From Promethearchaeota archaeon (lineage in GTDB: Archaea > Asgardarchaeota > Thorarchaeia > Thorarchaeales > Thorarchaeaceae), in assembly GCA_048939765.1 (NCBI GenBank), contig JBHLPF010000005.1:1-64000 (forward strand): 64,000 nucleotides of DNA. Direction: 5' to 3'. Each line of letters starts with the position of its first letter. Position 1 is the first letter of the stretch. This document shows, one piece after another, positions 23,438 through 40,685 of this stretch. The notes under the pieces were generated by a model. That model was not told the DNA's origin. It did no database searches and worked only from the letters and a program-made list of their open reading frames with translations. A program made the translations under genes and the position numbers.

Positions 23438-24169
23438 ATGTCTTCTAGAGAGCCTGATATTGTCGGACGCGAATTCAAGCATGGAAAAGTTGCATATGGC
23501 TTTCGGTGGAATAAGACTCATCATGAGCGAATGGGAAAGGACGAGGGGGATCTTGCTTCCTTATGGGCTCACATGACAAATATCACCTCCGGGAGAGTTC
23601 CCTCTGCACCATTCTCCGATCCATTTTACGAGAGGGCTTCTTCCCTGAAGTTGACAAAGATGAACGCTGCAAAGAAGGCAGCTATGAAGAGCCGCCTATT
23701 CAGAATAGGATCTGTGAAGAGTTTCATGGATAGTGATCTCATTAGCAAGCTAAGGAACTATCATCGAGCAACCAATAATCTAAGTTACAATGCTGACCAC
23801 GGAATAATGACAGAATTCCTGCATCAAGACCCTAATACTATAGCAATCGAAGTACCCGTATGGTCTGACCGATATCGTCTATCAGGGCATATAGACCTCC
23901 TTAGATTCGTAGGATCTACCGTTGAGGTGTGTGATTACAAACCAGGGCCTATGCATTCCACCAGCAATCGATTCTTGGAATCAATACCGCAAATTGCGGC
24001 ATACGGCGAGATGATGGCTCATCATCTGGCAGGCACTCTGAGAAGCGCCTTTGATGCGCCACTTCTCCCCAAAATCCGCTGCTGTATCTTTGACACACAT
24101 GCTTGTTGGGAGTTCGGTGCTGAAATGTTTGTGACTCTATTGGAATCTGACAAGATATCTGGCTTTTAA
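23438..24169 (+). CDS. PD-(D/E)XK (RecB-like) nuclease family protein
   Basis: IEVPV..GHIDLL..VCDYKP..PQIAAYG. Confidence 0.8.
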   Translation: MSSREPDIVGREFKHGKVAYGFRWNKTHHERMGKDEGDLASLWAHMTNITSGRVPSAPFSDPFYERASSLKLTKMNAAKKAAMKSRLFRIGSVKSFMDSDLISKLRNYHRATNNLSYNADHGIMTEFLHQDPNTIAIEVPVWSDRYRLSGHIDLLRFVGSTVEVCDYKPGPMHSTSNRFLESIPQIAAYGEMMAHHLAGTLRSAFDAPLLPKIRCCIFDTHACWEFGAEMFVTLLESDKISGF

Positions 24170-25002
24170 TTCTGGCTGTTCTTGACAATCGCCATAGTCA
24201 CATTTTCTTCTATGCTAAGCGATCCTGTATCAGGATTCTTGGTCTTCAGTAGGATTGTGGGCCTCTGTGAAACAAGTCCTTCTCGAACTCGTGAGAAGTA
24301 GTTCTCGCTCAGAACACCAAAACGACCTAGCGCAGGGTCAACCGGAACCCATCCTCTTCTCTCCAGGAAAATCTCGCACCATGCATGTGGTTCTGGCATG
24401 GTTTGCTTCTTGAAGAAGTGTCCAATGACTCGTCTAGAGGGAATCTTGACTGCTCTCGCAAGTGCGATGAATAGGTCAGCATGCTCATCACAATCGCCCT
24501 CCTTTTCCATCGCTGCCCTCGCTGCTCCTATTCTCTCATCTAGATGAGTCTTTAGCTTCACGCGCTCTCGAACCACTTGAAATGCAAGCCTACCATATGA
24601 GAGATCTCCATCACTCTTCTCTGCGATGCTCTGAGACAATGTCTGAATGATCGGGCTTTCCACTTCCCAGTATTTCTGCATAGAGCTGTACATACCGACA
24701 GTCTGCTTCCTGATTGATTCGGGTATCGACTGTTGCTCAATCAGCCAATCTCTAGTCGTGGTGTCTATTCGCAAAATCGCAGTGGGAGAGAATGCTTCAC
24801 CAGGGCTAATCTCCGGAACCTTCATGACTGCAACAATATTCTTCTCTGCTCGCTCCATCACCCTAGCTGGAGGAAAGACATCAATCATCTCAACAAATTG
24901 ATTGTCCATGTCAGTAAAGAGATGCCAAATAAGCCGGCCATTACGAATCTTGGATTTTCCGCGATTTAGTATATCGGCTTGCATCTCAATACGTAATCTC
25001 AC
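24166..25002 (-). CDS. Transglutaminase-like (Cys-His-Asp) domain protein
   Basis: GDCDEHA, HAWCE, WVPVDP. Confidence 0.88.
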   Translation of the reverse strand: MRLRIEMQADILNRGKSKIRNGRLIWHLFTDMDNQFVEMIDVFPPARVMERAEKNIVAVMKVPEISPGEAFSPTAILRIDTTTRDWLIEQQSIPESIRKQTVGMYSSMQKYWEVESPIIQTLSQSIAEKSDGDLSYGRLAFQVVRERVKLKTHLDERIGAARAAMEKEGDCDEHADLFIALARAVKIPSRRVIGHFFKKQTMPEPHAWCEIFLERRGWVPVDPALGRFGVLSENYFSRVREGLVSQRPTILLKTKNPDTGSLSIEENVTMAIVKNSQN

Positions 25003-32253: not shown

Positions 32254-33255
32254 CTATCCTATGAGTCTGACTGATGTCACAGTGTCACTGTATATCAAAC
32301 GAGCGGGAGTCTTCATGATTCTCAGAACATTGTCTGCATGTTTCGCCATTCCGACATCGCGCAACATATCAACGAAATCTAGACCTGTCGTTACTGCTAA
32401 TCCCTTCAGGGGCTTACCTACTCTGCAAGACTCGAGGAGGTCATCAGCAGAAACAATTTTGCATCGTAAGCCATCACCAACATGCTTCTGCAAATGAGAA
32501 ATTCCTTTTCTTGCTATTCCCTTGTTTTCCTTTTGTTCAGTAGTATAGACTCTTCTCTTTGCAATATTGCGGAGTCTTGCCAGTCCTCTTTCGATGACTT
32601 CTTCTGATGTTATTGTGGCTCCATAGAGATAGCTTACATCTTTGGTAGTTGAGGTCACGAGCCACGCCGTACCATAAACCGCTTGGTATCGCATTCCTTT
32701 GAGTATCTCCGACTCACTGAGAAGTGTAATGGAACGATATCCCTTGTACTCAACTGAGATTGTCCAATCTGGGTCCTTGTGTTTCACCATGAGATCTGGA
32801 CTCAGACCCTCCCCAGTCGAGGGGACACTCGTTTCTACGTCAGGAAATAAATGAGTGATATATCCATGAAATGCCTCGTGAAACAGGTTGTGCCTGAGAT
32901 TCCGCGCTTCCTGAGGATGGCGAAGACCGGCCTCCTGATAGAGAACCGGCATCTCCATCTTTTGGCCAGTCTTAAGCCGAACTTCGCTCTTTGTGGTCTG
33001 TTTTCCTCGGGCGTGATTCTCTTGTACAAGGCGAATCGCTGCAGTTCTTCCAAGAAGACGAAACATAGACTTTCCAAGTTCTATACCCTGGGGTGGCTTT
33101 TTTCCATCCTGCTTTCTTTTCGCTTCTTTATAGGCCCAGTCCACTACTTCCTGAGCATCTTCATTGAGCAGATAGAAAATCGAGCTAAGTTTCTCTCCCA
33201 GATTGTACCTCCTCACATACTTCTTCAATTCTGGAGCATACTTAATTCTTCCCAA
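32254..33255 (-). CDS. Hypothetical protein with restriction-endonuclease-like PD-(D/E)XK domain
   Basis: SPDLMV...VEYKG followed by AWLVTS. Confidence 0.55.
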   Translation of the reverse strand: MGRIKYAPELKKYVRRYNLGEKLSSIFYLLNEDAQEVVDWAYKEAKRKQDGKKPPQGIELGKSMFRLLGRTAAIRLVQENHARGKQTTKSEVRLKTGQKMEMPVLYQEAGLRHPQEARNLRHNLFHEAFHGYITHLFPDVETSVPSTGEGLSPDLMVKHKDPDWTISVEYKGYRSITLLSESEILKGMRYQAVYGTAWLVTSTTKDVSYLYGATITSEEVIERGLARLRNIAKRRVYTTEQKENKGIARKGISHLQKHVGDGLRCKIVSADDLLESCRVGKPLKGLAVTTGLDFVDMLRDVGMAKHADNVLRIMKTPARLIYSDTVTSVRLIG

Positions 33256-33298: not shown

Positions 33299-33955
33299 CT
33301 ACATTATTTCCTTTATCAGCTTGACCTCTTGTGTTTCCTCATCGTAGGACACTAAATCCGCGTTCCTCAGGTCATGGATTGCCTTCATGACCGCAGTAGC
33401 CATAATTCCAGTACTGGATTCAATATTTTTCCTTGTAATAGCTGTCTTTGTGTTGTGCAATGTATATAGCACCCTGGCGTGAGGCTTGCCTCCAAATATG
33501 TTCTCAATAAGAATAATGTAGATTGCTAGCAGATCACTCACATCTACTTTCTCTTGGAGTTTCTCTTTCTCTGCTGATGTTTCGCGGTAGAGTTCAGATA
33601 CTCTTTCCAGTTTCGAATTGATTTCATCCATCTCAGCTCTGAGTTCATCTCTTTCTTTTCGAAGTTCATCAATCTCAGAATCCTTCGTTGTGTCCGACCT
33701 CAGTGTCTCCAATTCTTCGGTTGAACTCTGGAGGGACTCTTTTGTTGACTCAAGTTCAGACTCCACCTTGTTTGCTCTCTCCTCTGCTGCCCACGATTTC
33801 TCCTCAGCTTCCCTCTTGGCAGCGCGGAGTTCTTCTGCCTCACTTGCATATCTATCAATGTCGCCAGACAGCCTATCATGCTCTTCCAACAGTTTGACGA
33901 CTGTGTTCCTCAACTCATCGAATTCTTCGAGAGTCTTCTCTTTATCCAAAGACAT
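33299..33955 (-). CDS. Coiled-coil protein with C-terminal winged helix
   Basis: Acidic heptad region; HARVLYTL..ITRKNIESSTGI..VMKAIHDLRNADLVSYD; start probably MSLDKE. Confidence 0.75.
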   Translation of the reverse strand: MSLDKEKTLEEFDELRNTVVKLLEEHDRLSGDIDRYASEAEELRAAKREAEEKSWAAEERANKVESELESTKESLQSSTEELETLRSDTTKDSEIDELRKERDELRAEMDEINSKLERVSELYRETSAEKEKLQEKVDVSDLLAIYIILIENIFGGKPHARVLYTLHNTKTAITRKNIESSTGIMATAVMKAIHDLRNADLVSYDEETQEVKLIKEIM

Positions 33956-33991
33956 AGTATCTCCACCAATCATGCCTGACTATTCAGTGTC

Positions 33992-34201
33992 TTATATCAG
34001 TTTCACATCATAGTCAAGTGCTTTCGCTTGAATGTACTTCATACATGCTGTTTTCAATTGATTTAGTGGCAACCAAAAAGCCTGAAACTCCTCCAGCTCT
34101 CCTTTCGTCGTCTTTCTCAGCATGGTATTATTCACGCGAATGAGCATTTCATCCTGACCTATCGCCTGAATCGGATTGATTCTGGCGCGGGCATTTGACA
34201 T
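33992..34201 (-). CDS. Small hypothetical protein
   Basis: 69 aa, GAGGTGA RBS, co-oriented within a gene run. Confidence 0.55.
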   Translation of the reverse strand: MSNARARINPIQAIGQDEMLIRVNNTMLRKTTKGELEEFQAFWLPLNQLKTACMKYIQAKALDYDVKLI

Positions 34202-34244: not shown

Positions 34245-35144
34245 CTATAGCATTGGAACCACGAAGTAGCCTGCAAGAAGTGTGGATAAAAGCGAGACCG
34301 TCAACAGTACCCAAATCGGTCTGCTCCATCGAAATATGGTGCTTCCATCAAAACCAGGAATGGGTATCATGTTGAATAGGCCCAGGAATGAATTCAATAG
34401 CATTCCATAGAATATTATGAACTGAACCGCGGAGGCCAAAGGTCCTGTTGTGATTACAATTATCTCTGCAATGATAAAGAGCAGTCCTGCGATTATTATG
34501 TTGGAGAAAGGACCCGCGACAGTTGATTTTGCATAGTCTTCAACGTCCCTCACGCCTCCAACAGCCATCACTCCAGTACCGAAGATGGGGATTGCAAACA
34601 GGATGGCAACTGCAGATAGATAATATCCCTGCATTGTCATCCGGAAGTGTGCGTACATTCCATATCTTTGTGCTACGAATTTGTGGGCAAATTCATGAAT
34701 CATGAATGACAGCCAAAAGATCAAGATCATCGCAATAGGAAACCACCACAATGACGAGAGTAGAAGAGCTGGCATCAATAGGAACCCATTAACAATTGCG
34801 ATTGGTGATACTGGATTGTTGATTCCGAAAATCGCTATGCTAACAAGAATCGTCAAAACAGTGGCAATCCCTAGATCCCTAATCTCGGTATCCGTGAATC
34901 TTTGCTTTCTTGGTTTCTTCACTTTCACTTGACGGTGCTGCATGAATACGTCTTCATCATAGTCTTCGTCATCATATTGGCCTGTAAAGGAGTCAGCAAT
35001 TTTCTGGCGTGCGCCATCCTTGACCTTTTGCATTGCAGTGCAGCCATGTCCCTCAGGAAGTCTGTGATCAGAGCAATAGACTCCTCTGCAATAAGGACAC
35101 ACAAACACTAGATCTTCCTTGCCGCATAAGGAGCAGTTGGCCAT
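34245..35144 (-). CDS. AN1-type zinc finger fused to M50 (site-2) intramembrane metalloprotease
   Basis: CSLC..CPYCRGVYCSDHRLPEGHGC; HEFAH, AGPFSN, FNMIPIPGFDG. Confidence 0.9.
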   Translation of the reverse strand: MANCSLCGKEDLVFVCPYCRGVYCSDHRLPEGHGCTAMQKVKDGARQKIADSFTGQYDDEDYDEDVFMQHRQVKVKKPRKQRFTDTEIRDLGIATVLTILVSIAIFGINNPVSPIAIVNGFLLMPALLLSSLWWFPIAMILIFWLSFMIHEFAHKFVAQRYGMYAHFRMTMQGYYLSAVAILFAIPIFGTGVMAVGGVRDVEDYAKSTVAGPFSNIIIAGLLFIIAEIIVITTGPLASAVQFIIFYGMLLNSFLGLFNMIPIPGFDGSTIFRWSRPIWVLLTVSLLSTLLAGYFVVPML

Positions 35145-35327
35145 AGTTATTGCCTCTCAGAGTTCAGTTTCACACCGAATACAGTCTTTCTTAAGGGTAT
35201 TCGTAGTGGAATTCGATTGTCTTCTTGAGTTGGAATCATGTGCGTTTCCAAAGTTATTAAGAAAATCGTGCATCTTAGTAAAGGTTCATATACTTTCTAA
35301 TGTAACTTTCCAACATACGCTTGAAAT

Positions 35328-35404
35328 CTAGGCTTGTCGAGAGCGGCAATGGCCCATCTTTCAGACGGCCACGCGTGAAGCCTAGCTTCCTGGAAAGCGG
35401 GAGG
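35328..35404 (+). promoter_or_regulatory. Structured 5' leader of hsp20-cdc48 with SD-sequestering hairpin (RNA-thermometer-like)
   Basis: CTAGGCTT/AAGCCTAG, GCG/CGC and TGGCC/GGCCA stems; then CTTCCTG-gaaag-CGGGAGG pairing over GGAGG. Confidence 0.45.
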
Positions 35405-35415
35405 AACCAAGTTTA

Positions 35416-35847
35416 ATGATTGACGATGACGAATTTCAGAAGATTTTCCGCAGAATGATAGAGCAATTCTTTGGCACCTTCGGGATGCAGCCCGGAGGAA
35501 GCGGGATGGACGGATTGTGGGACGGTGGTTTTGATGAATTGGATGAGATACCACTAGATATGCCTCGTGAAGATGCCAGAGTCGAGCGCATAGACCTTGG
35601 AGATACCGTCATCCTAGTTATGGACGACTGTGCTCTTGAAGAGGGCCTCCAAGTGATTGTCAAAGGGAGAGTCGCAACAATTTCCTACGGTCCTGACAAC
35701 CCTGTTCAGACAATCGAGGCTCCCTTTGTCATTGATGCGAATCGTTCCTTTGTTTCGTGCCGAAATGGAGTTGCTGAGATTCGACTGCAGAAGGATGAGA
35801 ATAATAAGGAATCTGATGACGTAGAGAGATTGTTGAGATTCGAATAG
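35416..35847 (+). CDS. Small heat-shock (Hsp20/alpha-crystallin-like) protein, divergent
   Basis: F/M-rich N-terminus, RNGVAEIRLQK; archaeal hsp20-cdc48 gene order. Confidence 0.65.
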   Translation: MIDDDEFQKIFRRMIEQFFGTFGMQPGGSGMDGLWDGGFDELDEIPLDMPREDARVERIDLGDTVILVMDDCALEEGLQVIVKGRVATISYGPDNPVQTIEAPFVIDANRSFVSCRNGVAEIRLQKDENNKESDDVERLLRFE

Positions 35848-35860
35848 AGGGTGTGTTTGG

Positions 35861-38089
35861 ATGGCGGAAAGCACAGACAATTCAATTAGATTGAAGGTCG
35901 CGGCCGCAATGCCGAAGGATCAAGGTCGCGGGATAGTTCGATTGAACACAGAGGTGCGTGATCTTCTCAAGGTACGTTCGGGTGACTATGTCCTGCTAAA
36001 AGGAACAAAAGAAACCGTTGCAGTTTGTTGGCCCAGCCTCAAGGAGGATGAAGTGCTTGATATGGTCAGAATGGATGGCCTCATTCGCGCAAATGCAGGA
36101 GTGAAACTTGGTGAAATGGTGGAGGTTGGGACAATTACCATCCCTGATGCAACCAGGGTTGTTCTAGCACCGAGTCAGCCAGTAAGATTCCAGCCTGGAT
36201 TTGAGGAATACATTAAGCAACAGATAATGAACCGGCCCATGACGAGAGGAGATATCATCCTAATAGCATCCATAGGACAAGGTCTTCAGTTCACTGCGAC
36301 CTCTGTTGGTCCAACCAAGCATGTTAGAGTTACTGCTTCAACCAAACTCGAGGTTCTCACTAGACCTGCAAAGCCTGAGGAGATTACTATCCCACAGGTC
36401 ACTTACGAAGATATAGGCGGTCTGAGCAAGGAGATACAGAAAATCCGAGAAATGGTGGAGCTCCCCATAAAGTCGCCCGAGCTCTTTAGACGTCTCGGAA
36501 TATCACCTCCAAAAGGCGTCTTGTTACATGGTCCGCCTGGAACAGGCAAGACACTTATCGCGAAGGCTGTTGCAAATGAGTCAGGCGCGAACTTCAAGAC
36601 GATTAATGGACCAGAGATAATGTCCAAATTCTATGGCGAATCTGAACAGAAATTGAGGGAGGCTTTTGAGGAAGCCGAGAAGAATGCCCCAAGCATTATC
36701 TTCATCGATGAACTTGACAGCATTGCACCAAAGAGGGCTGAGGTAACGGGAGAAGTTGAGAGAAGGGTCGTTGCCCAACTACTTGCTCTGATGGATGGAC
36801 TGGCCGGCAGAGGACAGGTCATAGTAATTGGAGCCACAAACCGGGTGGATGATGTTGATGAAGCTCTAAGAAGGCCAGGTCGATTTGACCGCGAGATTGA
36901 GATTGGAGTGCCTGATCGACAGGGGCGTCTTGAGATACTTCAGATTCATACCAGATCCATGCCTCTCGAGGAAGGGCTTGACCTTCAACGGTTGGCTTCA
37001 GTCACTCATGGATTCGTGGGTGCGGACCTGGCGGCCCTAGCTAGAGAGGCCGCGATGGAAGCACTCCGCAGAGCACTGCCGCATGTGGACCCTGAAACTG
37101 GAGATATTCCTCCAGATGTGCTTCGTGATCTCTTTGTCACACAGAATGATTTCGATATTGCACTCTCCGGTATCTCACCTTCTGCTCTGAGGGAGGTGCT
37201 TGTGGAAAAACCCAATGTGCAATGGGAGGATATTGGCGGACTGGAAAATGCGAAAAAGGCGCTGTTGGAGTCCGTAGAAGGGCCTCTCAAGTTTCCGGAT
37301 GTTTTCACAGAAATGAAGATTAGGACGCCAAAGGGGATTCTTCTCTACGGTCCGCCAGGCACTGGAAAGACTCTACTCGCTAAGGCAGTCGCCACTACGA
37401 GTGAGGCCAACTTCATCTCAATCAAGGGACCTGAGATATTCAACAAATATGTGGGAGAATCAGAAAAAGCTGTGAGGGAGATCTTCAAGAAAGCTCGACA
37501 GGTTGCTCCATGCGTAATCTTCTTTGATGAGATAGATGCGCTGCTCAGCCAGCGAGGGCAGCAAGATGACACCGGAGTGACACAGAGGATTGTGAACCAG
37601 TTCCTAGCTGAGGTTGATGGACTTCAGACTCTGCAGAATGTCCTTGTTATTGGCGCTACAAATCGTCCAGACATTATGGATCCAGCAATGCTTCGTCCAG
37701 GTCGGTTCGATATTCTATTGCATGTGGAAGCACCAGACAAGAATGCAAGATTGGAAATACTCAAGGTACACACAGTTGCAAGAGGCATTCCTGGTTCCGA
37801 GAATCTCGATTTGGAGAAACTCGCAGAAAAGACAGCCAATTTCTCTGGAGCGGACATTGAGGGCTTGGTAAGAGTGGCGGTGATGATTGCTGTCACTGAA
37901 GGTTCAACGCCCACGAATATTAAGATGAAGGCCAGGAAAATTGAAATGAAGCATTTCGAGGAAGCTCTGAAGACAGTACGACCCACTTTGACACCGAAAG
38001 TGCTGGAATATTATGAGAAGATTTCTGCAGCTCTAGAAGGCCGTCAGATTGAACCAGAGAGATCGGCGCGATCTGATCTTTATGTATAG
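35861..38089 (+). CDS. cdc48: CDC48/VCP (VAT) AAA+ ATPase
   Basis: N-domain; two GPPGTGKT Walker A motifs; FIDE/FFDE; RPGRFD. Confidence 0.97.
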
Positions 38090-38101
38090 TTCATCAATTC
38101 G

Positions 38102-38124
38102 GAGGGTCATTCGCCCCGACCCTC
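38102..38124 (+). terminator. Hairpin after cdc48
   Basis: GAGGGTC-N9-GACCCTC. Confidence 0.35.
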
Positions 38125-38192
38125 TAGCATTTCACTAGGGTCGTAACACTTTTGGCATCCATCTTACACAACACATTGATGTGTGACCTACA

Positions 38193-40685
38193 ATGGGGCA
38201 ACGCTGGATAGTTAATCTATGCCCATTTCTGCATTTTGACAACTCAAGAGTACAGACGTATGAGCATAACATCAGCATAGTTTCTTGGAACGTCAAAAGC
38301 ATTCTGGACTATCTTGAAGTGAATCCAAGTCACAAATTTAGCGTTGACCAAGTGACACTTCTTGATGGGTTCAAGCGGCTCTTTCCTAATTACTGGGACT
38401 CCCTTCATCAACGGGTTTTGGAAGGGAGGATTGAGATTGTGGGTGGCACATATGTGATGCCTGACTTCATCATCCCGGATGGAGAATCCATAGTCCGCCA
38501 GTTTATGTTTGGCACTCGCTTCATCAGAGAGGAATTAGGAGTTGAAGTGAAGACAGGATGGGCAATAGATTCCTCCGGTCATTGCTCTCAAATGCCCCAG
38601 ATTCTCCGGCAATGTGGGATTGATTCCTATGTGTTTTGGAGGGGAATGCCCTACGACTCACCAACTGAGTTTGTATGGAAAGGGCTCGATGGCAGTCGAG
38701 TAAATGCGGCATGGCTTTCAAATGGCTATGACAGCTCCGCATGGCTATCGGAGAATCTTAGGGAGGCATTCAGTAATCTGCTAAAAGTCGCAGAACTAAC
38801 TGGAGCGAAGGCTTCCTCCCAGAATGTGCTTGTGCCCGTTGGCGGCGAGCTTGTGCCTCCGCTGCCTCACTTAGCTGACATTGTTTCCCAATGGAATGTT
38901 ACTTTTCCAGACATGCGGATGTCGATTGTAACTCCAAGAGAGTTCACTGAGAAGATCAAGGCAGTACAAGCCTCTCTACCCATGATGTCTGGAGAATTGG
39001 CATCTGGCCGCTTCTCATCTGTGAGATCTGGCGGTTTGAGCGCTAGAGTGAAGCTGAAGCAGATGAATCGCCAGCTGGAATCTATGCTGTATCTCACTGA
39101 GCTATATCTATCATTAACAGGTGATCTAGAGAATACAAGGGCATTGGAAAGCCTCTGGCTAATACTTCTCTTCAATCAAGATCACAATATTATTAGAGGC
39201 ACAATTGCCGATGAACCCTATCAGCTCGCCGAGCGTAGATTCAAACAAGCATTAGACCAAGCTGGCGAGATTCTTGAAGATGCCATAAGTGGTATCGCGT
39301 CACAGATTCCCTCTGACCCATCCAAGGCTTCATTTGTGGTATTCAATCCTCTTCCATGGCGCAGGGATGATGTGACTCGGCTTTCCCTAGATCTCTCCAA
39401 GATTCACACGCAGTTCTTCAGAATCCATGATTCAAATGGAAACAGTGTCCCGTATCAAGTAATTGGGGAAATTGTTGAGGGAAGCCCCGCAGATGTTCTT
39501 CTTCTTGCACGAGATATGCCGAGTCTTGGATATAGAGTCTACACTATTGAGCCCTCAGAAAAGCCTCCAGAGTTTGAGTCTTCTTTGCGCACTGGCAACA
39601 ATTGGGTGGAGTCAGATGATTTCATCGTCGAGTTTGATGATTTCAGTGGTGCAATGACTAGAGTGTTTGATAAACGCAATCAGTTTGAAGCTCTACGCGG
39701 TCCAAGCAACTATCTCACAATGGAAAGCGATGTTGGAGACCTCTACAGATATGCGAGATCCACACTTTCTGATGAGGAATCGGATCTTACGACATTGCGC
39801 CATTCAGGCAAGCTCTCGGTTGCTGAGTCTGGTCCACTCAGAGCCACAGTACAGGTCGAGGGAGATTTCAAGAACTCTAAGATGATACAACGGGTTGTGC
39901 TGTACGAGAGCCTTCATAGAATCGACCTTGAAACGGAACTGAATTTCAAGGGTCATAGTAAGCGTGTCAGAGCCAATTTCCCTCTAACAGTACTAGCAGA
40001 CAAAGTCGTAGTGGGTTCTCAATTTGGTGCGGAGTCCAGGACAGCCACACCGAATGATCCTGAGGGATGGGCTGACGCCAACCAGGGGCTATTTTCTGGA
40101 CTTGACTGGGTGGATTGCCCCGGACCGGAGTTTGGGATAGGATTGTCTGCATTTGGCCTGCACGAGTTTCAATTCAGAGATGGAATGCTCAGCGTAACTC
40201 TGCTGCGGAGTGTGGAACACCTGTCACATGGACGAGATGATGATGTTCTAGAGTCGAAGACTGCAAATGAAAAGGGTGACCATTCATTTCGGATGTCCAT
40301 TATTCCACACAAGGGATCTTGGAAGAACGCTGCAGTCTGGAGAACAGCCGCAGAGCATAGGCTTCCATTAATCGGCTATCCGCTGGAGGTTTCTGGGGGG
40401 TCATTGCCTGCTGAGAGATCATTTCTGAAAATTGAGGGAATGGAACTTGGTCTTTCCTGTTTTAAGATCGGCTCTTCTGATCAGGAGGTCGTCATTCGAC
40501 TCTATGAGATGGCCGGCGAGGAGGGACGTGCAACTCTTGAATTTCCTTTTGGAGTATCCAAGGTCAGTCTATTAGATCTCCGTGAGAATGCCATTGGAGA
40601 CCTGCCAACATCTGGTTCAACTGTAACATTTCCAATTGATGCTCACTCGATAATCACTCTCAAAGTCACAAAAGCTTCCGGGTAG
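38193..40685 (+). CDS. Glycoside hydrolase family 38 (alpha-mannosidase-like)
   Basis: GGTYVMPD, GESIVRQ, WAIDSSGH..QMPQI, FVWKGLDGS, VFNPLPW, TLLRS, RLYE; no signal peptide. Confidence 0.9.
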   Translation: MGQRWIVNLCPFLHFDNSRVQTYEHNISIVSWNVKSILDYLEVNPSHKFSVDQVTLLDGFKRLFPNYWDSLHQRVLEGRIEIVGGTYVMPDFIIPDGESIVRQFMFGTRFIREELGVEVKTGWAIDSSGHCSQMPQILRQCGIDSYVFWRGMPYDSPTEFVWKGLDGSRVNAAWLSNGYDSSAWLSENLREAFSNLLKVAELTGAKASSQNVLVPVGGELVPPLPHLADIVSQWNVTFPDMRMSIVTPREFTEKIKAVQASLPMMSGELASGRFSSVRSGGLSARVKLKQMNRQLESMLYLTELYLSLTGDLENTRALESLWLILLFNQDHNIIRGTIADEPYQLAERRFKQALDQAGEILEDAISGIASQIPSDPSKASFVVFNPLPWRRDDVTRLSLDLSKIHTQFFRIHDSNGNSVPYQVIGEIVEGSPADVLLLARDMPSLGYRVYTIEPSEKPPEFESSLRTGNNWVESDDFIVEFDDFSGAMTRVFDKRNQFEALRGPSNYLTMESDVGDLYRYARSTLSDEESDLTTLRHSGKLSVAESGPLRATVQVEGDFKNSKMIQRVVLYESLHRIDLETELNFKGHSKRVRANFPLTVLADKVVVGSQFGAESRTATPNDPEGWADANQGLFSGLDWVDCPGPEFGIGLSAFGLHEFQFRDGMLSVTLLRSVEHLSHGRDDDVLESKTANEKGDHSFRMSIIPHKGSWKNAAVWRTAAEHRLPLIGYPLEVSGGSLPAERSFLKIEGMELGLSCFKIGSSDQEVVIRLYEMAGEEGRATLEFPFGVSKVSLLDLRENAIGDLPTSGSTVTFPIDAHSIITLKVTKASG

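Follow-up and report, generated by a model that had tools for sequence, protein, structure and literature searches.

We analysed a stretch of 64,000 nucleotides (nt), hereafter the window, which comprises positions 1 to 64,000 of the forward strand of contig JBHLPF010000005.1 from a genome assembly of the archaeal family Thorarchaeaceae (GCA_048939765.1; 3.37 Mb, 88.5% complete). Our subject is a group of four genes, which encode a site-2 protease (S2P) of the M50 family with an AN1 zinc finger (AN1-S2P), a small heat-shock protein (sHSP), the AAA+ unfoldase Cdc48 and an alpha-mannosidase of glycoside hydrolase family 38 (GH38). An earlier interpretation of the nucleotides alone (the sequence-only reading) had joined these genes and a distant transglutaminase-like gene into a clustered pathway for clipping, extracting and deglycosylating membrane glycoproteins, a forerunner of eukaryotic endoplasmic-reticulum-associated degradation (ERAD). 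The features in question are as follows.

34245 to 35144, minus strand: AN1-S2P, 299 amino acids, with Pfam domains zf-AN1 and Peptidase_M50
35028 to 35135, minus strand: AN1 zinc finger of this protein, residues 4-39 (PF01428)
35145 to 35415, no strand assigned: divergent intergenic region with two separate promoter areas and the sHSP leader hairpin, from reading the sequence and an alignment of 10 genomes
35416 to 35847, plus strand: sequence-divergent sHSP with a short alpha-crystallin domain, 143 amino acids, first gene of the sHSP-cdc48 operon, assigned by ortholog profile
35861 to 38089, plus strand: Cdc48/VAT-type double-ring AAA+ unfoldase, 742 amino acids, with a C-terminal HbYX motif (L-Y-V), assigned by TIGR01243
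38090 to 38192, plus strand: spacer between cdc48 and the GH38 gene, with the hairpin GGAGGGTC/GACCCTC read from the sequence
38193 to 40685, plus strand: cytosolic GH38 alpha-mannosidase, 830 amino acids, a neighbour specific to the Thorarchaeaceae lineage, with four GH38 Pfam domains
24166 to 25002, minus strand: transglutaminase-like gene (Transglut_core, E=1.3e-16)

Open reading frame (ORF) calls and family matches confirm that the four genes are real and lie where the sequence-only reading had placed them, and the transglutaminase-like gene exists as well. Close homologs carry the label Thorarchaeota. The divergent starts of the AN1-S2P and sHSP genes are 271 nt apart, and gaps of 13 nt and 103 nt separate sHSP from cdc48 and cdc48 from the GH38 gene, respectively.

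The fusion of an AN1 finger to an M50 protease, divergent from hsp20-cdc48, was borne out, as both Pfam domains scored above their cut-offs. In the window ORF, zf-AN1 matched residues 4-39 with 39.9 bits (cut-off 27.9), and Peptidase_M50 (PF02163) matched with 30.6 bits (cut-off 27.2), covering residues 228-272 only. The motifs HEFAH and NMIPIPGFDG can be read in the sequence, and across 46 homologs the eight zinc ligands, HExxH, AGP and FNxxPxxxxDG vary little or not at all. The conserved ligands of the finger form a C6H2 set (C4, C7, C16, C19, C24, H27, H33 and C35). In the protease core, the HExxH zinc-site residues H150, E151 and H154 are invariant in the 46 homologs, as are F257, N258, P261, D266 and G267 of the second motif, which holds the third zinc ligand. 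The protein is built from an N-terminal cytosolic AN1 finger, a charged, disordered linker of ~45 residues and the M50 core. In an AlphaFold2 model with a mean predicted local distance difference test (pLDDT) score of 86.7, the finger is confident, the membrane core is helical and linker residues 56-76 fall below 50. The best Foldseek matches of the core were mjS2P (3b4r, E=7.7e-3, probability 1.00) and SpoIVFB (8vjl), with low template modelling (TM) scores of 0.32-0.41. The best match of the finger was the AN1 domain of Cuz1 (5ij4; 38% identity over 40 residues, TM 0.70, root-mean-square deviation 1.3 Å).

This finger is the sole AN1 domain in the genome, as a whole-genome search with PF01428 returned one match (45 bits). 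Among relatives the fusion is frequent: a profile of the 46 members matched 167 of 201 sampled Asgard genomes, and a scan of species-representative genomes yielded ~60 full-length matches in Bathyarchaeia and Nitrososphaeria, where the neighbouring genes encode ribosomal protein S10, Mre11/Rad50, FttA and a HAD hydrolase. The literature that we searched holds no description of AN1 on an S2P in archaea, or of AN1 in Asgard archaea. The AN1-S2P fusion is a large, widely distributed and uncharacterised family of archaeal proteases that is both old and common. In an Asgard family with genomes of ~1.4 Mb, which may be Odinarchaeia, the profile matched in 0 of 4 sampled genomes.

With the S2Ps mjS2P, SpoIVFB (which carries a CBS domain) and RseP (which carries a PDZ domain), AN1-S2P shares HExxH, NxxPxxxxDG and a multi-helix core, but its accessory domain is an N-terminal AN1 finger on a charged disordered linker. 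N-terminal AN1 fingers also occur on haloarchaeal rhomboids, including RhoII of Haloferax volcanii (PMC4343526, PMC9263693), and H. volcanii, one of our control genomes, has a PF01428 match. An AN1 finger on an intramembrane protease is therefore a recurring archaeal design, here in its S2P version. Both proteins have an N-terminal AN1 finger fused to an archaeal intramembrane protease, but RhoII is a serine rhomboid from another phylum, whereas AN1-S2P is a zinc S2P. Deletion of RhoII changes S-layer N-glycosylation (PMC4343526, PMC9263693); its phenotype comprises S-layer N-glycosylation and motility, and no comparable phenotype is known for AN1-S2P.

On the opposite strand, the name hsp20 given by the sequence-only reading holds by ortholog profile, although the protein is divergent and has no match in Pfam, HSP20 included. 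The archaeal Hsp20 family of NCBIfam (NF041800) matched weakly (E=0.013, 15 bits against a 140-bit cut-off), but a profile of 15 orthologs matched the alpha-crystallin domain of the solved archaeal Hsp20 4rzk (E=6e-8), including the NGVLEI strand, as well as HSP16.5 (1shs, E=0.0025). Cdc48 matched TIGR01243 with 1029.8 bits (cut-off 802.65) and consists of CDC48_N, CDC48_2, two AAA and two lid domains (N, D1 and D2). Its C-terminus, ...SDLYV, is a HbYX-type tail that could, by analogy, dock on the 20S proteasome, which is capped by archaeal Cdc48 (PMC13328587). The genome encodes a second Cdc48 paralog on contig 35.

The sHSP gene adjoins cdc48 across the Thorarchaeaceae loci. As the sequence-only reading remarked, such linkage is ordinary in archaea: in Pyrococcus furiosus, the heat-shock genes for HSP20 and the Cdc48 homolog VAT1 lie next to each other under the control of Phr (PMC10746257), and each of them has a Phr binding site in front of it and is induced by heat (PMC10746257, PMC9133787). 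The locus shares with the Phr regulon of P. furiosus and the HSR1 operon of Archaeoglobus fulgidus an sHSP gene directly beside a Cdc48/VAT gene, and repeats right after its sHSP TATA box fit a repressor site. However, these GGTCCCTAG-type repeats are unlike the published Phr or HSR1 motifs, and the sHSP here, with its short alpha-crystallin domain, is too divergent for Pfam HSP20. The sHSP-cdc48 pair is the sole predicted operon at the locus, an ordinary archaeal heat-shock unit whose promoter and leader are well conserved.

We compared the upstream regions of 12 Thorarchaeaceae loci. Those of the sHSP genes have in common a TATA box, repeats of the GGTCCCTAG type and a leader hairpin, whereas those of the AN1-S2P genes share a different ACGAATAC/CTTAAG element. 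A k-mer comparison of these loci found no 6-8-mer common to the AN1-S2P and sHSP upstream sets. An alignment of 10 genomes from the same genus as the window likewise shows two conserved blocks in the divergent intergenic region. A shared operator, TTAAG-N(2-5)-TCG, was considered and rejected, as only in this genus does it precede both genes, and the sHSP upstream regions of other genera do not have it.

The promoter and leader of the sHSP gene are strongly conserved (window positions 35285-35415; locus L040, 8067-8166, minus strand; locus L041, 11063-11162, plus strand; and ten other loci). They run from the TATA box (CTTATATACC) through two GGTCCCTAG-like repeats and the leader stems to the Shine-Dalgarno sequence, and the two repeats are likely a repressor site. 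The leader has an inner stem (GGGCGG/CCGCCC) and an outer stem (GAAGCCC/GGGCTTC) just 5' of the Shine-Dalgarno sequence; its consensus fold contains the inner stem only, with little covariation. In the genus of the window, a hairpin of other sequence occupies the same place (35328-35385). On the AN1-S2P side, the block CTTAAGGGTATTCGTAGTGGAA (window positions 35190-35212), ~45-70 nt upstream of the start, is nearly invariant. It also occurs in nine genomes of the same genus and in locus L043, even where the proteases are only 57% identical, and it may serve as a promoter element typical of the lineage or as a site for a regulator. Other genera have related ACGAATAC/GGAATAC elements before the TATA-like boxes of their AN1-S2P and GH38 genes.

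The GH38 enzyme matched all four GH38 Pfam domains above their cut-offs (PF01074 with 138.5 bits, PF09261, PF07748 and PF17677). The sequence-only reading had it start 103 nt after cdc48 and had seen no signal peptide; both observations stand, as the catalytic domain begins at residue 7 and so leaves no room for a signal peptide. By eye, LHFD (residues 13-16, H-x-D) and GWAIDSSGH (residues 122-130, GWxxD) lie at the places expected in GH38. Its best solved relatives are Ams1 (6lz1, 8e-31) and Streptococcus SpGH38 (2wyh, 4e-28). In a collection of 5.8 billion proteins, orthologs ranged from 94% down to 47% identity, and the named ones are almost all labelled Thorarchaeota (two are labelled Lokiarchaeota); below 47%, identity falls to ~29% and the named matches are bacterial. 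A 33%-identical GH38 protein occurs in one Asgard genome outside Thorarchaeaceae among the relatives searched (G029), with no Cdc48 nearby. As SpGH38 scores near Ams1 and the homologs outside Thorarchaeaceae carry bacterial labels, the enzyme has no specific eukaryotic affinity, and its matches place it in the general cytosolic/bacterial GH38 branch. Intracellular GH38 enzymes of archaea have already been characterised (PMC7469102). It has the four-domain GH38 architecture without a signal peptide in common with Ams1/MAN2C1, SpGH38, Saccharolobus/Picrophilus ManA and Escherichia coli MngB, but forms a Thorarchaeaceae-specific clade that is ~29% identical to the nearest outside proteins and falls below the MngB cut-off.

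A second GH38 paralog (974 amino acids, ~31% identical) is encoded on contig 54 of the window genome (L143, 8285-13381, minus strand), in a same-strand run with genes for galactokinase and galactose-1-phosphate uridylyltransferase. The setting of this paralog is plain sugar catabolism.

Next, we turned to gene order and searched the flanks of the AN1-S2P gene in relatives, up to 10 kb either way, with twelve window proteins. Across the genera of Thorarchaeaceae, a block of 11 genes is syntenic, from an upstream 333-amino-acid ORF to a downstream ORF for a 592-amino-acid tetratricopeptide repeat protein. As the whole block is syntenic, the four genes are no better conserved together than with unrelated neighbours, and conservation within the family is therefore no evidence of function or of a pathway. 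In about half of the Thorarchaeaceae loci, an insert of 1.7-2.9 kb separates the AN1-S2P and sHSP genes; in locus L040 it is a gene for an FAD-dependent oxidoreductase, with topoisomerase VI subunit B on the other side. In genome G019 the AN1-S2P gene alone is inverted, so that it is co-directional with sHSP-cdc48. The locus seemed to be split in genomes G004 and G011, but this was ruled out, as contig or scaffold breaks run through the genes.

In most Thorarchaeaceae genera, cdc48 is followed by the GH38 gene, which is missing from this place in G018, G020 and L065. Nor did we find a GH38 ortholog elsewhere in the genomes G018 (96% complete) and G020 (93% complete), which have only a distant paralog with 26-29% identity and keep every other gene of the block. 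On the Cdc48 tree, G018 and G020 branch among genera that have the GH38 gene, so that two losses of this gene are implied. In most other genera, the spacer between cdc48 and the GH38 gene contains a hairpin and a T-run, with a TATA-like CTATAAG 50-60 nt before the GH38 start. This indicates a separate GH38 transcript in most genera.

Three ORFs without a Pfam family lie downstream of the AN1-S2P gene on the same strand and are conserved in all Thorarchaeaceae genera.

33992-34201, minus strand: 69-amino-acid ORF without Pfam family
33299-33973, minus strand: 224-amino-acid coiled-coil protein without Pfam family
32254-33255, minus strand: 333-amino-acid protein without Pfam family

In several genera, AN1-S2P is separated from these three ORFs by inserted topoisomerase VI genes.

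To see how far the pairing of AN1-S2P and Cdc48 extends, we surveyed 18 Asgard families that have the fusion and the ~60 loci of Bathyarchaeia and Nitrososphaeria. Cdc48 adjoins AN1-S2P only in Thorarchaeaceae and in two families of Baldrarchaeia (f1, f8 and f16, respectively). No Cdc48 gene lies within 10 kb of AN1-S2P in representatives of the 15 other Asgard families, nor in the ~60 Bathyarchaeia and Nitrososphaeria loci. In Baldrarchaeia family f8 (G031/L089) the two genes are co-directional and 141 nt apart; in family f16 (G055/L070, L075 and L079) their orientation is convergent, with a gap of 36 nt in L070. Near AN1-S2P and Cdc48 in the Baldrarchaeia loci, we found none of the other window genes that served as queries. 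In the Cdc48 tree, the Thorarchaeaceae copy and both AN1-S2P-adjacent Baldrarchaeia copies belong to a single clade (support 87/89) that does not include the second Thorarchaeaceae paralog (contig 35).

Both Baldrarchaeia families have the order polysaccharide deacetylase, AN1-S2P, Cdc48, with the deacetylase gene directly upstream of AN1-S2P (L070, 9146-9943, plus strand; L089, 6059-6805, plus strand). As this order is common to both families, they represent one lineage, not two. L075 comes from a record labelled Odinarchaeota (isolate AUK032), but was counted with Baldrarchaeia because it corresponds to G044, which belongs to the same GTDB genus as the Baldrarchaeia metagenome-assembled genome (MAG) G055. 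Its AN1-S2P and Cdc48 differ very little from those of a Baldrarchaeota MAG, and the taxon label of the record looks unreliable. An 88-amino-acid ORF just upstream of the Baldrarchaeia Cdc48 was considered as an sHSP and rejected, with a profile comparison probability of 0.35%.

As the synteny extends over 11 genes, the AN1-S2P gene is subject to inserts and inversion, the GH38 gene has been lost, the promoters are separate and AN1-S2P is broadly distributed, we conclude that the locus probably consists of three independent transcription units, which are joined by the conservation of gene order in Thorarchaeaceae and do not form a pathway. The GH38 gene is a neighbour specific to the lineage, and the transglutaminase-like gene does not belong with the four. 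In the first unit, the AN1 finger on its flexible linker would take the place of the PDZ and CBS domains of other S2Ps and is most likely a protein-binding module that chooses, on the cytoplasmic side, which substrates or partners to bind; the S2P core would cut transmembrane helices. In the second unit, the sHSP would hold unfolding proteins and the Cdc48 hexamer would unfold them, docking on the 20S proteasome through its HbYX tail as suggested by other archaea. The closeness of the genes in Thorarchaeaceae and Baldrarchaeia hints that cleaved membrane proteins may pass to Cdc48, which is neither shown nor general. The third unit would be a Thorarchaeaceae-specific cytosolic alpha-mannosidase, mostly on its own transcript, which is expected to act in the catabolism of mannosides or oligosaccharides and to be unconnected to the others.

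Several points weigh against such independence. The adjacency of AN1-S2P and Cdc48 is kept in two Asgard classes and in three orientations, which exceeds a purely neutral expectation, and the two Baldrarchaeia families have different Cdc48 sub-paralogs beside AN1-S2P. Promoters and terminators were called by eye from aligned sequences. In the genus of the window, no clear TATA is visible by eye in the spacer between cdc48 and the GH38 gene, and given this, transcription may read through from cdc48 into the GH38 gene there.

The proximity of AN1-S2P and Cdc48 is the part of the earlier interpretation that has some support, as its recurrence in Baldrarchaeia goes beyond family synteny; the glycoprotein half of that interpretation is not supported. 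This proximity raises an alternative in which AN1-S2P would cut membrane proteins that are damaged or orphaned, and Cdc48 (or Cdc48-20S), recruited by the finger, would extract and degrade the fragments while the sHSP buffers the hydrophobic pieces, with the GH38 enzyme left outside. Such two-part quality control of membrane proteins is possible but, on balance, unlikely. It would account for an adjacency that occurs in three orientations without the other window queries nearby in Baldrarchaeia, and for the single clade of the adjacent Cdc48 copies, and it fits the HbYX tail and the recurrence of AN1 on archaeal intramembrane proteases seen with RhoII (PMC4343526). However, the adjacency is absent from the 15 other Asgard families and the ~60 Bathyarchaeia and Nitrososphaeria loci, the two Baldrarchaeia families count once, unrelated genes lie between AN1-S2P and sHSP-cdc48 in about half of the Thorarchaeaceae loci, and the promoters of the two units have no detectable common motif. 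The argument from homology, by which the sequence-only reading had linked the finger to Cdc48, carries less weight than that reading gave it. The closest solved finger is indeed the AN1 domain of Cuz1, a protein associated with Cdc48 and the proteasome, and AN1-S2P has the C6H2 AN1 fold in common with Cuz1/ZFAND1 and AIRAP/AIRAP-L (ZFAND2A/B). Yet yeast Cuz1 binds Cdc48 through its C-terminal ubiquitin-like (Ubl) domain and not through the AN1 finger, and the Cuz1/ZFAND1/ZFAND2-type subfamily carries an LDFLP motif after the first cysteine pair (PMC5035049). AN1-S2P has no Ubl or other Cdc48-binding domain, only the finger followed by the disordered linker and membrane core, and the position of LDFLP reads GKEDLVF (EDLVF instead of LDFLP), so that the subfamily motif is not kept. 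Unlike the soluble adaptors, its finger is tethered to a membrane protease. A complex prediction for the AN1 region (residues 1-90, 46-row alignment) with the Cdc48 N domain (residues 1-200, 23-row alignment) scored 0.09 against a mark of 0.32, a score that counts neither for nor against binding. Taken by itself, a true functional link between AN1-S2P and Cdc48 seems unlikely to us. A broader proposal, that AN1-S2P is the membrane entry of an archaeal 'clip and extract' route in which AN1 hands cleaved proteins to Cdc48-20S, and that the tie between AN1 and degradation predates eukaryotes and began on intramembrane proteases (S2P in Asgard/TACK archaea, rhomboid in haloarchaea), is more doubtful still. 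If true, the partnership would set a precedent, among prokaryotes, for a route that leads from intramembrane proteolysis through AAA+ extraction to degradation by the proteasome, by the same logic as ERAD and related eukaryotic pathways, and would explain the ties of eukaryotic AN1 proteins to Cdc48 and the proteasome.

The explanations that give the GH38 enzyme a role beside Cdc48 fare worse than the independence of the three units. In the proto-ERAD route, the S2P clips, Cdc48 extracts, a PNGase with a transglutaminase fold deglycosylates and the cytosolic GH38 enzyme trims the freed oligomannose. The GH38 branch does include Ams1 and MAN2C1, with Ams1 as the best solved match, the one STT3/AglB gene in the genome indicates that N-glycoproteins exist, and the RhoII deletion ties a haloarchaeal AN1-rhomboid to S-layer N-glycosylation (PMC4343526). 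But SpGH38 almost equals Ams1 and the nearest homologs outside Thorarchaeaceae are labelled bacterial; orthologs of the enzyme are limited to a single family, two of whose genera yielded none, and in most genera the gene has a promoter-like spacer of its own. GH85 ENGase had no match in the 88.5%-complete genome although controls matched, which is not proof of absence. The transglutaminase-like gene lies 9 kb away with 11 ORFs between, including genes for longin-like paralogs, radical SAM and roadblock proteins. Its only solved relative is 3isr, a bacterial transglutaminase-like putative cysteine protease (E=0.002), no PNGase was matched among solved structures, and its Pfam family is present in 10 of 14 control prokaryote genomes. 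PNGase features a Cys-rich zinc-binding module; by eye, the transglutaminase-like protein has two cysteines only, both in catalytic motifs, and therefore no such module. We see no feature that would identify it as a PNGase. DER1 (PF04511), UFD1 (PF03152) and ubiquitin (PF00240) had no match in the genome, but neither did the controls, so these negatives prove nothing. Nor is the neighbourhood conserved as the sequence-only reading had drawn it, as the GH38 link does not extend beyond Thorarchaeaceae and was lost in two genera, and the transglutaminase-like gene is unlinked. The clustered pathway fails on synteny, and we consider it improbable in the extreme. The four-gene 'proto-ERAD' picture has its basis in synteny at the level of the family, and we advise against repeating it. 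Alternatively, the GH38 enzyme could be a stress-linked hydrolase of mannosylated compatible solutes (of the mannosylglycerate type), placed beside heat-shock genes for thermal or osmotic adaptation. Its sole NCBIfam match is the mannosylglycerate hydrolase MngB (NF007331, E=2.7e-71), over nearly its full length, but its 240.6 bits fall far below the 1138-bit cut-off of this equivalog. Mannosyl-3-phosphoglycerate synthase (PF09488) had no match in the 88.5%-complete genome although controls matched, which again is not proof of absence, and the genomes are sediment MAGs, for which a thermophilic lifestyle would have to be assumed. We regard this explanation as very improbable.

A further arrangement of AN1 fingers was seen in the large Asgard family f9, where AN1-S2P has behind it another gene for an AN1 finger with a multi-pass membrane domain (L054, 8623-9576, minus strand); similar tandems occur in L169-L172. 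The second AN1 protein of L054 has the Pfam finger, a faint rhomboid match (E=0.23) and, by eye, no GxSG motif. It may be a rhomboid-like or pseudoprotease partner.

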